Part shown: positions 19,418 to 37,560 of the stretch, in pieces
Position numbering within the stretch: position 1 is the stretch's first letter
Layout: every line of letters begins with the position of its first letter
Source of the DNA: Candidatus Woesearchaeota archaeon
GTDB taxonomy: Archaea; Nanobdellota; Nanobdellia; Woesearchaeales; SKIA01
NCBI GenBank assembly: GCA_046704725.1
Contig: JBJKRI010000002.1
Coordinates: forward strand, 1 to 64,000
Length of the DNA: 64,000 bases
Reading direction: 5' to 3'
Program-made: the position numbers and the translations under genes
Notes under the pieces: model-generated
Database searches by the model: none
Seen by the model: the letters and a program-made list of their open reading frames with translations, nothing else
What the model was told of the DNA's origin: nothing

Positions 19418-19469
19418 CCGTGGCTGTCCTGTGAGGACTTCCGAGATGCACGGAGGATTTCCGGAACGG
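19418..19469 (-). repeat. 52-bp TA-associated repeat, copy R1
   Basis: ccgtggctgtcctgtgaggacttccgagatgcacggaggatttccggaacgg; 48/52 identical to R2. Confidence 0.9.
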
Positions 19470-19501
19470 GTGTTGATGGGTGCTGTTCAGGTGTGTGACG
19501 C

Positions 19502-19756
19502 CTATTTTGGATAGCGATGGTCGGTGATGATTTTCTCCGGATACAGCTCTCGCCGTCTCTGGTCGAAGGAGAAGACGATCCTGTAGGGCCCGATCCGCAC
19601 GCGGGAATGCCTCCTCAATGGTCCGCGCAGCCGCTTGTGGCGCGTCGGATCCTCCGCGACCTGCTCGATCTTCTTCAGGACACGTCGCCGTGCTTGGGCG
19701 TCGAGTCCCTTCAGATCGTCCGCGAATTCACGCGTCGGTAGGATCCTGTAGGTCAT
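19502..19756 (-). CDS. relE: RelE/ParE-family toxin
   Basis: YRILPTREFADDLKGL...HKRLRGPL..SRVRIGPYRIVF. Confidence 0.88.
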   Translation of the reverse strand: MTYRILPTREFADDLKGLDAQARRRVLKKIEQVAEDPTRHKRLRGPLRRHSRVRIGPYRIVFSFDQRRRELYPEKIITDHRYPK

Positions 19757-19919
19757 TCCAGTCCGCGAAATCGCGGCGCCTGACCTGCTCTTCCGAACGC
19801 TTCAAGGAGTCCATGAATCCCTTGTCCTGCGAGAGTTCGAGGGATTCGAGGAGCGCATCCGCCTCGTCACGGATATGCCTGAGCCCCTCCCGGGTCTCCT
19901 TGTCGACGCTCATATGCAT
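19728..19919 (-). CDS. Antitoxin partner of RelE
   Basis: LLESLELSQDKGFMDSLKRSEEQVRR pattern; overlaps the toxin start. Confidence 0.75.
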   Translation of the reverse strand: MHMSVDKETREGLRHIRDEADALLESLELSQDKGFMDSLKRSEEQVRRRDFADWNDLQDPTDA

Positions 19920-19974
19920 GGTCAGGTCCTCGCGGTAGATAAACCTACTGCATCCTGTTATACGTGCCTTGCGG

Positions 19975-20026
19975 CCGTGGCTGTCTTGTGAGGAATTCCG
20001 CGATGTACGGAGGATTTCCGGAACGG
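19975..20026 (-). repeat. 52-bp TA-associated repeat, copy R2
   Basis: ccgtggctgtcttgtgaggaattccgcgatgtacggaggatttccggaacgg. Confidence 0.9.
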
Positions 20027-20043
20027 TGGGTGGTCAGTATCCC

Positions 20044-20427
20044 TCACGCCTCGTCGATCTCTTTCTCCACCGCGGTCGCGCACGCATCGAAGGCTTTTTC
20101 CGCGAAGTCCAGAGCGTCGTCCGCTTCTGCGACCTGCGCGGCGTAGCCGTCGTAGTTGATCCTGTGCCGCACGCGCTTGACATTCTCGATGTACGCGAGC
20201 GGCCGCGCCGTCTCGATCTTCAGCCGTTCGAGCTCGGTGAGCTGCGTGCCGTGGTCCGTGCTCTTGATTCCGGCGAGCGAAAGGCGCGCTTCTCCGAGCA
20301 TGCGGAACGCCTCGTAGACGTTGCGGACGATTGTCGCCGCCGTGGTGTCGTTGACGGGAATCTGCTGCGCTGCGGCGATGTCCCTGCGCGCTTGCTGCAC
20401 GAGGTCGCGAGCGCGGCCAGGGTTCAC
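20044..20427 (-). CDS. HEPN-domain protein (toxin of an MNT-HEPN pair)
   Basis: GTG overlaps the MNT stop; YEAFRMLGEA, RHRINYDGY HEPN-like motif. Confidence 0.75.
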   Translation of the reverse strand: MNPGRARDLVQQARRDIAAAQQIPVNDTTAATIVRNVYEAFRMLGEARLSLAGIKSTDHGTQLTELERLKIETARPLAYIENVKRVRHRINYDGYAAQVAEADDALDFAEKAFDACATAVEKEIDEA

Positions 20428-21026
20428 GTACGCACCTCGAGGAATCCCTTGAGCACGATGCCGTTGGCGATGCTGTTGAACAGGTTCACCCCGATGCGGT
20501 TCCGGCAGAAGACATGGAGATTCACCTGTACGTCCTTCCTGTATCCGACCGTGGCTATGGTCGCGACGGGGACGATCTGCAGTTCGATGTCGTCGGGCAC
20601 CTCCACAGCGATGTCGATATCGCTTCTCTCCGTGTCCTGTCCTGTCCTGTAGCTCCCGAAGAGGATCATGTTCTTCGCTTGCGGGATCTGCTGCTCTATG
20701 AGTCTGATGAGGCCGGATTCGTATATCGTCCGGAGGTTGTGTCCGATCTTCCGGCTGAGGTTGAAGATATGCTCGGTGTTGCAACGCAGGCGGTGCATGC
20801 GTCCGAACACTTCCTTGTGGAGAAAGCCGCTCTCCACGAGCTGCGGGATGATCTCCTGCGCCGTTGACTTGGATATGCCCACTTGCTCGACGAGTTCGTT
20901 CACGCTCACGCCCTGGTCGGGGAAACTGAAGAACCAGAGCAGGATGCGTTCGAGGCTGTCCTTGAGCTCCTTGGCCTTCCGTTGCTCCTGCAGGCGTTCG
21001 GCGTCCCTAAGCGTCTTGAGCGGCAT
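20424..21026 (-). CDS. wHTH plus minimal nucleotidyltransferase (MNT) antitoxin
   Basis: SVNELVEQVGISKSTA HTH; ILFGSYRTGQDTERSDIDIAV. Confidence 0.9.
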   Translation of the reverse strand: MPLKTLRDAERLQEQRKAKELKDSLERILLWFFSFPDQGVSVNELVEQVGISKSTAQEIIPQLVESGFLHKEVFGRMHRLRCNTEHIFNLSRKIGHNLRTIYESGLIRLIEQQIPQAKNMILFGSYRTGQDTERSDIDIAVEVPDDIELQIVPVATIATVGYRKDVQVNLHVFCRNRIGVNLFNSIANGIVLKGFLEVRT

Positions 21027-21033
21027 ACTATCG

Positions 21034-21088
21034 GTACGCTATAGTACCATATAAAGTTTTTTATGTACCACCTGGTACTATTATGTAC
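21034..21088. promoter_or_regulatory. Phased GTAC operator array around the TATA box of the MNT-HEPN operon
   Basis: GTAC at 21034, 21044, 21065, 21075, 21085; inverted repeat ATAGTACCA/TGGTACTAT. Confidence 0.55.
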
Positions 21089-35995: not shown

Positions 35996-36050
35996 AACGG
36001 GAAATCCTCCATAGCAACCGGAATTCCTCACAAGACATCCACGGCCGCAA
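35996..36050 (+). repeat. 52-bp TA-associated repeat, copy R3, immediately after the cysS-N stop
   Basis: gggaaatcctccatagcaaccggaattcctcacaagacatccacggccgcaa matches the reverse complement of R2. Confidence 0.88.
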
Positions 36051-36096
36051 CGTATTTTGCCAATCGCAGGCTTGAAATACTTGGAGGCACTCTTCC

Positions 36097-36285
36097 ATGA
36101 TTATGGACGCTGCGGAGATGGAAAAGCGGATACGGCGCTTGGAACGCGAGGTCGCAGACTTGCGCGCTTCGTCTGGAGAGCCGCTCACGCAAGACGAGCG
36201 TGAAGCCGTCGAGAGCTATCGCCGCGCGAAGAGCGAGGGAGAACTCATCCTCCACGAGCGAGTCTTGGAAGAATTCGGTCTGTGA
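36097..36285 (+). CDS. Antitoxin partner of RelE
   Basis: LTQDEREAVESYRRAKSEGELILHERVLEEFGL; homologous to 37611-37799; GTGA overlap. Confidence 0.8.
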   Translation: MIMDAAEMEKRIRRLEREVADLRASSGEPLTQDEREAVESYRRAKSEGELILHERVLEEFGL

Positions 36286-36542
36286 CCCGCACGCTGCTCT
36301 GGCAGCCCCGTGCGTTGCGGTATCTCCGGCGCATATCGAGAGTGAACGTGCGGTCGTTGCTGAGACGGGCGGAATCGCTGTGCGACAATCCATTCCCGAA
36401 GGATGTGGAGCTCGTGCGGGGAGAGAAGGGGCTGTACCGTACGCGTGTCGGCGGATATCGAATTCTCTACACGTTCAATGAGCTTTCTGTCGATGTCGTG
36501 AATGTTGATAAACGCGGGCGCGTCTACAAGAGGAGAAGATGA
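36282..36542 (+). CDS. relE: RelE/ParE-family toxin
   Basis: NPFPKDVELVRGEKGLYRTRVGGYRILY...VDKRGRVYK. Confidence 0.9.
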   Translation: MTRTLLWQPRALRYLRRISRVNVRSLLRRAESLCDNPFPKDVELVRGEKGLYRTRVGGYRILYTFNELSVDVVNVDKRGRVYKRRR

Positions 36543-36582
36543 CGATATACCCAGCAAAGAGGGCTCTTGGTACGGAACGATC

Positions 36583-36627
36583 CGGAACCTCAAGGGAGCC
36601 ACAGAACTCTGCCTGGAGGATCTTCCA
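36583..36627 (+). pseudogene. Degenerate hicB fragment
   Basis: RNLKGATELCLEDLP versus RNLKEATELYLAEFP in hicB 31513-31725. Confidence 0.5.
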
Positions 36628-36673
36628 GCGCCCCACCGTGAATACCTGCAGTGTGGATATCCGACCGCACGGC

Positions 36674-36680
36674 TTTTATA
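36674..36680 (+). promoter_or_regulatory. TATA box (TTTTATA) for the cysS C-terminal half
   Basis: 22-28 nt upstream of ATG 36702, the spacing seen for other leaderless genes here. Confidence 0.6.
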
Positions 36681-36701
36681 CCTTCGTCGCTCCGCACACG
36701 C

Positions 36702-37511
36702 ATGAAGAAGGTCAAGCTCACCGTCACGGGCTTTCCCGGCTGGCACCTCGAGTGCACGGCCATGGGCGTCAAGTACCTGGGAGAGACCTTCGACATCCAC
36801 ACGGGCGGCATCGACCACATCCCCGTCCACCACACCAACGAGCTCGCCCAGGCGGAGGCGGCCTTCGGCCACGACCACGCCCGCGTCTGGATGCACAACG
36901 AGTTCCTCCTGGACGAGACGGGCAAGATGGCCAAGAGCAAGGGCGATTTCCTGCGCCTGCAGACACTCATCGACAAGGGCTACGACCCCCTCGACTACCG
37001 CTACTTCCTCCTCCTCACGCACTACCGTAAACCCGTCACCTTCACCTGGGAAGCCTTGGATGCCGCCGCGAAAGCGAGAAAGCGCCTCACCGACAAGGCC
37101 ATCGAGCTCAAGAGGACCGTCTATGGAGGCGACACCGCTGCTGCCCCCTCGTCCCCCCATCCCTCCAAGGAACGCATGGCGTTCCAGGCCCGCTTCGCGC
37201 AGGCCATCAACGACGACCTCAACACCCCGCAGGCATTGGCCGTCGTCCACGACATGATCAAGAGCGATCTTGCCGGCACGGAGAAGCTCTCCCTCCTCCT
37301 CGACTGGGACCAGGTCCTCGGATTGCGCCTCAAGCAGGCGGAGCGTTCCGGAGAGGATGTCCCCGAAGACATCCAGCGCTTGGTGGATGAACGAGAGGCT
37401 GCACGCAAGGACAAGGACTGGAAGCGCTCCGACGCTCTGCGCGACGAGCTCGAGGAGAAGGGCTGGCAGGTCAATGACACGCCCGAAGGCCCCGTCCCCG
37501 AACGGCTCTGA
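36702..37511 (+). CDS. cysS: Cysteine-tRNA ligase, C-terminal half of a split gene, with 9-aa novel N-terminal extension
   Basis: MKKVKLTVT then GFPGWHLEC, DIHTGGIDH..HHTNE, KMAKS, DDLNTP, anticodon domain REAARKDKDWKRSDALRD. Confidence 0.92.
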   Translation: MKKVKLTVTGFPGWHLECTAMGVKYLGETFDIHTGGIDHIPVHHTNELAQAEAAFGHDHARVWMHNEFLLDETGKMAKSKGDFLRLQTLIDKGYDPLDYRYFLLLTHYRKPVTFTWEALDAAAKARKRLTDKAIELKRTVYGGDTAAAPSSPHPSKERMAFQARFAQAINDDLNTPQALAVVHDMIKSDLAGTEKLSLLLDWDQVLGLRLKQAERSGEDVPEDIQRLVDEREAARKDKDWKRSDALRDELEEKGWQVNDTPEGPVPERL

Positions 37512-37560
37512 ACCGGAAATCCTCCGTCCGTTCCGGAACTTCTCACAAGACACGCACGCC
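37512..37560 (+). repeat. 52-bp TA-associated repeat, copy R4, immediately after the cysS-C stop
   Basis: ccggaaatcctccgtccgttccggaacttctcacaagacacgcacg. Confidence 0.85.

Follow-up and report, generated by a model that had tools for sequence, protein, structure and literature searches.

Toxin-antitoxin (TA) operons are normally thought to be self-regulated through their own antitoxin, and three-component TA systems have a separate regulator. Recombination sites also occur among TA genes: the pdif modules of Acinetobacter plasmids carry TA pairs, with pdif sites flanking the modules in alternating orientation, and integron attC sites, including the reported archaeal clusters of attC sites lacking integrases (CALINs), form arrays in which short repeats alternate with small genes, often TA pairs. 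As set out in the available text of PMC9668308, attC arrays may lack a nearby integrase; the dif site, in the available text of PMC2958812, consists of two 11-bp inverted arms around a 6-bp spacer and normally occurs once per chromosome. In enteropathogenic E. coli, one small repressor, RptR, binds direct repeats in the promoter of a TA-containing defence island (PMC12255303, in the part of the text available). The element considered here is a repeat of about 55 bp, referred to as the module, that recurs in front of TA operons in the first 64,000 nucleotides (the window) of contig JBJKRI010000002.1 (C2 below) of a Candidatus Woesearchaeota archaeon. It is tentatively read, with a probability of about 0.45, as a shared promoter-upstream protein-binding module (an operator or upstream activating site) of some TA operons that also serves as portable homology. 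It resembles the RptR system in having repeated boxes at a defence or TA promoter, for which a small trans-acting binder is the logical partner (PMC12255303, likewise), but differs in that one module stands before seven operons of four TA families in two islands and is copied as a discrete unit. The host also differs, being an archaeon with promoters made of a transcription factor B recognition element (BRE) and a TATA box and with leaderless mRNAs, in which the regulator is only postulated.

The four copies in the window that the initial annotation had listed were all recovered. Named c1 to c4 and read, like all copies, on the strand of the downstream operon, they lie at 19417-19472 (c1, minus strand), 19974-20026 (c2, minus), 35995-36050 (c3, plus) and 37510-37560 (c4, plus); c1 has all the conserved boxes described below and is 91% identical to c2 over 46 core columns, and c2, c3 and c4 were each recognised by sequence and by profile match. 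As also annotated, each copy follows a stop codon (abutting it in c3 and c4, 17 nt from it in c2 and about 30 nt in c1) and stands directly 5' of a TA operon in constant orientation. An 18-nt core pattern has four exact matches in the window and one more with 3 mismatches, against 0.31 expected, and none of 100 shuffled sequences gave at least five. In alignment, the window copies read (T)CCGGAAATCCTCC, then 8 variable nt, then CGGAA-N4-TCACARGACA-N-CCACGG, so that three invariant boxes can be defined, A (GGAAATC, position 0), B (CGGAA, +20) and C (TCACA-GACA, +29 to +38), followed by a near-invariant CCACGG. The stretch between the arms differs in every window copy, in agreement with the initial annotation. 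Copies can be aligned over about 50-55 nt, and their flanks are unalignable.

The module was then placed in its genome, which comprises 1.18 Mb in 8 contigs, has 60% G+C and is 99.69% complete; its small-subunit ribosomal RNA scores 1425 bits with the archaeal model against 1078 bits with the bacterial one, and many families of its order have genomes of about 1 Mb. A genome-wide profile scan with inspection of the flanking genes, a check that the initial annotation had proposed, gave seven full copies (E <= 3.9e-10; next match E = 0.046), all 5' of TA operons. The three beyond the window, c5 to c7, are on contig C6 at 109118-109182, 109885-109947 and 110537-110602, all on the plus strand. The full copies form tandem arrays of 2, 2 and 3 units, each array in a single orientation, and all seven lie upstream of a TA operon and are oriented alike relative to it. 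Box C (TCACARGACA) occurs seven times in the genome, every time within a module. An eighth, internally deleted copy at C7:22215-22245 (minus strand) still has box A and the last part of box C but has lost about 20 nt, one repeat period; it lies directly 3' of a NUDIX gene, whose TGA falls inside its left edge. Comparison of the genome with itself brought out no second short intergenic repeat family.

Behind the seven full copies are four ParE-type operons, one MazEF operon, one combining PIN with a ribbon-helix-helix (RHH)-like protein, and one of DUF7557/VapB-like type. The c1 unit encodes a MazE/AbrB-type antitoxin (19083-19352, minus; PF04014, E = 1.9e-07) and a PemK/MazF toxin (18769-19098, minus; PF02452, E = 9e-15). 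In the c2, c3, c4 and c6 units a protein of 62-63 amino acids (aa) precedes a ParE_toxin protein. For c2 these are a 63-aa antitoxin-like protein of no Pfam family (19728-19919, minus) and a ParE/RelE-type toxin whose gene it overlaps (19502-19756, minus; PF05016, E = 1.9e-07); for c3, a 62-aa coiled-coil-like antitoxin (36097-36285, plus) and a ParE-type toxin (36282-36542, plus; PF05016, E = 6.4e-08); and for c4, a 62-aa antitoxin-like protein (37611-37799, plus) and a ParE-type toxin (37796-38050, plus; PF05016, E = 4.9e-07). The c5 unit pairs PIN with a 95-aa RHH-like protein, and the c7 unit a DUF7557/VapB-like protein with a 112-aa protein of no known family. A family search detected no DNA-binding domain in the 63-aa protein of c2, and none is detectable in the three closely related ParE-type antitoxins of c3, c4 and c6, so that these three would not be expected to regulate their operons alone and an outside regulator would be needed. 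The operons themselves have diverged widely: the ParE toxins of c4, c6 and c2 are 43, 38 and 24% identical to that of c3, and outside the module blastn between operons found no similarity other than one match of 23 nt where the c3 and c6 toxin genes end. The 46 core columns of the module are 67-91% identical between copies. By this comparison of sequences, the module is conserved far beyond coding DNA and beyond neutral expectation.

The position of the module relative to the promoter was evaluated with a signal derived from 471 confidently coding open reading frames (ORFs) that start with ATG. These show an A/T content of 0.51-0.71 at -34 to -24 before the ATG, over a background of about 0.4, and no marked G-rich ribosome-binding (Shine-Dalgarno) signal, which together indicate that host mRNAs are mostly leaderless, with a TATA box near -27. 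A matrix built from the same sites has the consensus AACAAAACATTTATAAAG, and in ordinary genes its window opens 38 nt ahead of the start codon; at random positions the 99th percentile of its score is 3.6 and the 99.9th percentile 7.1. Six of the seven modules have a match at +44, +45 or +48 among their three best sites (scores 4.7-8.0), so that a weak BRE/TATA-like box occupies +44 to +61, just past the module boxes, and all four ParE-type units have matches at +63 or +67 with scores of 7.6-11.0. Within the window these promoter-like boxes are GAGAATGCCTTTTCAAGC after c1 (19400-19417, minus; score 8.0 at +45), the strong TGCAGTAGGTTTATCTAC after c2 (19935-19952, minus; 9.3 at +67, with the leaderless start predicted at the second ATG), the strong ATCGCAGGCTTGAAATAC after c3 (36063-36080, plus; 9.7 at +63) and TCCGTAACCCTTATAGTC after c4 (37578-37595, plus; 7.6 at +63). 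Starts are predicted at +82 in c5 (its ATG), at about +83 in c1, at +101 to +106 in the ParE-type units (at the second in-frame ATG or GTG) and at +121 in c7, which has a strong TATA of its own further on; the values of about +82, +102 and +121 are thus spaced about two helical turns apart. Archaeal activator sites and some repressor sites usually lie just ahead of the BRE, and it is there that the module boxes are placed, their position and direction being constant with respect to the core promoter.

The spacing of the boxes points in the same direction. GGAAATC and CGGAA are 20 bp apart in 7/7 copies, and with box centres about two and one helical turns apart the boxes would face one side of the DNA, as expected of recognition boxes phased by whole helical turns. 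The 13-mers beginning at 0 and +20 form direct repeats matching at 10-11 of 13 positions in c1-c4, a level reached by 0-15 of 500 shuffles, and exceed shuffled sequence in these four copies only. The arms of the initial annotation are therefore more aptly seen as direct repeats with a 20-bp period than as inverted arms, the latter matching at 7-8 of 11 positions in c1-c4, a level that 39-335 of 500 shuffles equal.

What is read directly from the DNA is the sequence of the copies, their number, place and orientation, the geometry of the promoters and the way identity is distributed; protein binding, co-regulation and the route of recombination are deduced from them. Fixed orientation, a fixed distance to the promoter box, phased invariant boxes and conservation beyond that of coding DNA favor the shared operator, which the initial annotation had offered as its alternative and which fits better than a dif- or att-like site, the boxes being fixed directly upstream of promoter-like boxes. 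A trans-acting DNA-binding protein would occupy the boxes and set the transcription of all module-bearing TA operons together; judged by domain content, candidate binders are MazE, the 95-aa RHH-like protein, the DUF7557/VapB-like protein and the 90-aa winged-helix-like product of the third gene of the c6 unit. The recurring 55 bp or so would at the same time provide patches of portable homology between copies, through which homologous recombination or gene conversion would homogenise neighbors and could build tandem arrays of module and TA operon without a dedicated recombinase. A circle that carries a single module with its TA operon could enter, through homology, any module already in the genome, and such integration would produce tandems without a module after the last unit, as is observed. 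A text search of the literature, where searching by sequence is impossible, brought up no account of an upstream repeat common to archaeal TA operons in the portions of text available.

Several observations weigh against a purely regulatory element. Core identity tracks the array and not the TA family: c1 (MazEF) and c2 (ParE), 557 bp apart, have cores that are 91% identical, as do c5 (PIN) and c6 (ParE), whereas c3 and c6 belong to closely paralogous units and have cores that are only 70% identical. The otherwise variable spacer agrees at 6/8 positions in c1/c2 and at 7/8 in c5/c6, and in the 19 columns past the core identity falls to 42% (c1/c2) and 68% (c5/c6), so that recent copying or conversion has acted on the core of about 55 bp by itself; as far as sequence comparison shows, such recent copying is not predicted by regulation alone. 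In c3, c4, c6, c7 and the deleted C7 copy, the TGA that closes the upstream gene is 4-7 nt ahead of GGAAATC, and a stop codon inside the left edge is a trait of inserted elements. The deleted copy, moreover, stands before a 95-aa ORF without a Pfam or TA family. In c5-c7 the second direct repeat is degenerate (8-9/13, not above shuffles), and it is here that inverted 11-mers match at 9/11, a level equalled by 0-9 of 500 shuffles. Nor do all TA loci have a module, which is carried by 4 of the 8 ParE-family matches and 1 of the 6 PIN matches in the genome, and a module-less ParE operon with the same antitoxin type (C5:191220) keeps only the core-promoter part. Finally, the module was not found in 60 relatives, which leaves a conserved regulon without comparative support. 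The array-wise homogenisation, recent copying and left-edge stop codons, the last with a left edge ACGGC(W)(T)CTGAA common to c4, c6 and c7, fit gene conversion together with ectopic homologous exchange between copies, a route suggested by the pattern of identities.

Several searches bear on the distribution of the module. A 38-nt pattern, searched with up to 3 mismatches, occurred in this genome alone among 61 (this one and 60 relatives, 4 of the same genus), so that the scan of relatives proposed in the initial annotation found the module in 0/60. Two exact patterns had no match in genome, viral or metagenome contig collections, a search that would miss diverged relatives, and a peptide pattern of the c3 ParE toxin matched 359 stretches in genome contigs, none of them confirmed by tblastn. 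Applied to the ParE and cysS loci of relatives and to the module-less ParE loci of the genome itself, the module profile gave nothing above 5.4 bits, and a short-word comparison of the ParE loci of three relatives (G007, G002 and G008) showed no analogous repeat at the upstream positions. The genome has 8 ParE matches against 0, 2, 0 and 0 in the same-genus relatives, whose genomes are smaller (0.9-1.0 Mb). From these comparisons, both the TA expansion and the module look lineage-specific.

One module-bearing unit interrupts cysS, the gene for cysteinyl-tRNA synthetase (CysRS). The N half lies at 35288-35995 (plus; PF01406 profile positions 2-181 of 301) and ends at a TGA in the left edge of c3; the C half, at 36702-37511 (plus; PF01406 positions 187-300, DALR_2 and CysS_C), ends at a TGA in the left edge of c4. 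Alignment to intact relatives shows that the last 29 codons of the N half (35906-35992) and the first 9 of the C half (MKKVKLTVT) are foreign. The break falls between RQMEW and GFPGWH, with loss of the conserved DSPWGx. The piece that splits the gene is 823 bp of a TA array. Between the halves are c3, the antitoxin gene, the ParE gene, a frameshifted remnant of a third gene (36539-36650, plus, by DNA alignment), which is winged-helix-like and has its intact form in the c6 unit, and a strong promoter box for the C half (36664-36681, plus; matrix score 10.8; 38 nt before the ATG at 36702). Of 12 relatives, 11 gave a match to the C half, in an open frame of 468-524 aa in 10 and cut at 305 aa in one; no match was found in G009, which is 83% complete. 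Since the genome holds no other cysS, its best SepRS score is below the cut-off (63.8 against 380.65 bits) and both halves are free of stops, the two-piece CysRS is, on sequence grounds, probably functional and in use. The left breakpoint of the insert is 87 nt before the module and the right one lies in or beyond the third-gene remnant; with both outside it, the module is, by alignment, a passenger in the cysS insertion and not its crossover site.

Attempts to trace the insert further were made. The foreign 29-aa tail is not similar to a CysRS C-terminus (p 0.14-0.90), to the winged-helix-like protein or to the 112-aa protein; in one of four tests it showed a weak likeness to the C-terminus of the 95-aa RHH-like protein, with 10 of 1000 shuffles as good. 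A circularly permuted cassette broken in the third gene was dropped as an explanation of the insert, the tail being unlike the third gene, and an apparent second module relic at 36575-36610 scored -0.8 bits and is the frameshifted third-gene remnant. At the loci of the relatives there is nothing corresponding to the genes that flank cysS or to the CFA-synthase gene next to the C6 array, so that the borders of the insertions cannot be set by comparison.

A site-specific recombination system, in which the module would be a dif-, att- or attC-like site and a tyrosine recombinase acting in trans would excise and insert cassettes of module and TA operon, was the first proposal of the initial annotation and is now considered unlikely. 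It is favored by the tandem arrays in single orientation, by the left-edge stop codons and the common left edge, by the inverted 11-mers of c5-c7, and by the greater likeness of copies within an array than within a TA family, a trait also reported for chromosomal integron attC sites in the available text of PMC9668308. Recombinase genes, for which the annotation had suggested a search, are present as well: two XerA-like genes (C6:180356-181195 and C4:46113-46916), with scores of 219.2 and 221.3 bits against a XerA cut-off of 220, a 390-aa integrase gene (C5:239917-241089) and a 167-aa fragment (C6:96324-96827), 12.3 kb from the C6 array. A single XerA copy is the usual state in archaea. None of these genes lies in the window or adjoins an array, however, and the presence of XerA-like genes says nothing about use of the module. 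At the TIGR02249 cut-off of 265 bits the genome has no integron integrase, the XerA-like proteins giving the best scores (190 and 213 bits). The best inverted arms shift position between copies, with spacers of 4, 4, 5, 6, 6, 7 and 9 nt; held to a 6-nt spacer, they reach 8/11 in c2 (59 of 500 shuffles as good) and 7/11 in c3 (213 of 500). Fourteen single-strand DNA folds, from both strands of seven copies, were no better than shuffles (z -1.81 to +1.00) and gave no common hairpin. Classical tyrosine recombinases need matching central regions in both partner sites, and here the central region differs between copies; nor does a site follow the last unit of any of the three arrays, and the cysS breakpoints lie outside the module. 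The likeness to Xer/dif thus extends to the two XerA-like genes encoded, but a site with 11-bp inverted arms that normally occurs once per chromosome (PMC2958812, as far as its text is available) and has no tie to particular genes contrasts with 7-8 copies, seven full ones tied to TA operons and one deleted, whose arms are inconsistent. The module differs from pdif sites in that all copies have one orientation, and from attC, an imperfect palindrome that folds single-stranded and lies 3' of its cassette gene, in forming no hairpin, in standing at a fixed distance 5' of a promoter, in its direct repeats and in the lack of an integron integrase in the genome. Of the cassette system first envisaged, the arrays, the discrete unit of about 55 bp and the left-edge stop codons therefore hold up, but the dif/att-like core site of a tyrosine recombinase does not, on account of its arms, the missing hairpin and integron integrase, and the cysS breakpoints. 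A similarly improbable variant makes the module the junction in an archaeal cassette system of a kind not seen before. At this promoter-carrying element without a hairpin, one of the two XerA paralogs or homology-driven exchange would cut out whole TA operons, put them back and stack them as arrays, and the system would be active enough to have placed a unit in the only cysS, leaving a working two-piece synthetase.

The sharp borders of the unit (91% core identity in c1/c2 against 42% in the next 19 columns) and the spacer positions common within array pairs would also suit a small selfish or neutral repeat, either a miniature mobile element or a leftover promoter fragment, spread by gene conversion or ectopic recombination among neighboring TA loci. 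Such a repeat could be confined to one lineage, as the module is in the searches above, could leave a decayed copy such as that on C7, and could have expanded locally and recently, as the ParE counts of the same-genus relatives suggest. Like REP, ERIC and Correia-type elements, the module is intergenic, short, sharply bordered and present in several copies, and it provides the gene upstream with a stop codon and the gene downstream with a promoter-like box. A neutral repeat would scatter, however, and the seven full copies keep the same orientation and promoter-box distance; three blocks are invariant in copies otherwise diverged to 67% identity, which indicates constraint; and no other short intergenic repeat family came up when the genome was compared with itself. 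An inverted-repeat scan of the modules found no inverted termini, the trait of miniature inverted-repeat transposable elements, and in this, as in its low number of copies (only 8), strict TA association and single orientation, the module departs from REP, ERIC and Correia-type elements as well, so that this account is judged rather doubtful. Action of the module as RNA, either as an intercistronic element such as a cleavage site for an RNase toxin or through an antisense RNA from the adjacent TATA-like box, would be in keeping with the two ACA triplets in box C, with plausible read-through between co-oriented genes separated by very short spacers, and with the MazF-type, PIN and ParE/RelE-type toxins encoded behind the modules. 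It is nevertheless very improbable, as the consensus RNA fold (RNAalifold) has 5 weak pairs, none covarying, Rfam has no family at the modules even at E <= 5, and the leaderless starts are predicted downstream of the boxes. The promoter-upstream operator that is also portable homology thus remains the preferred reading.

The surroundings of the window copies form a defence island (18000-38500). It includes genes for a helix-turn-helix (HTH)-nucleotidyltransferase (20424-21026), a PLD-helicase (21693-23732), an SMC-like ATPase (23889-25889), a Schlafen/AlbA_2 protein (25865-26833), Vsr (26814-27464), a C5 methylase (27318-29015) and a MutH-like nuclease (29012-30493), together with HicAB-like genes (31471-31939) and a PIN/RHH pair (33133-33811); a gene for a DUF2779/Cas4-like protein (16091-17593) is counted with them. 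The HicAB genes, the PIN/RHH pair and an MNT-type locus are TA loci of the window without a module. Third-position G+C is low in the genes at 21693-26833, at 0.54-0.57 compared with about 0.85 for core genes. A 141-aa ORF at 18764-19189 was rejected as an arginine-rich spurious frame, the real toxin gene there being that of the c1 unit.

Some further observations concern individual units and loci elsewhere in the genome. The third gene of the c6 unit (C6:111083-111355) overlaps the ParE stop, and its 90-aa product has homologs in two relatives that are 46-50% identical; in one relative (G005) a 121-aa ORF, which appears RelE-like by eye, comes after the homolog. The c6 unit and the operon at C5:191220 have in common a core-promoter stretch (CGTAAGGCATATGGGGG...AAAGGA), at C5:190934-190984 in the latter, in which boxes A-C are missing and which contains the stop codon of the upstream gene. 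At C3:105438 (minus strand) a solo palindrome resembling box A (CCGGAAATCTTCCGG) lies beside an A/T-rich promoter-like stretch and could be a further site for the same putative binding protein. A 77-nt stretch at C4:115825-115901 is 93.5% identical to C5:239791-239867, just 5' of the 390-aa integrase gene, and the two may be an attachment-site pair or a piece of a tRNA gene. At C4:116000-118500, four paralogous units of about 750 bp stand in tandem, their 5' parts being conserved over 70-120 nt.

The regulation of TA and defence genes in small-genome archaea is almost unstudied, and the preferred reading, if true, would mean that part of the TA complement of such an archaeon is under coordinated, trans-acting control. 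A promoter module of about 55 bp copied between TA loci would also be a simple route for the growth of TA arrays without a dedicated recombinase, and the cysS case shows that a module-bearing unit can split an essential gene, each half being left with its own stop, promoter and start.

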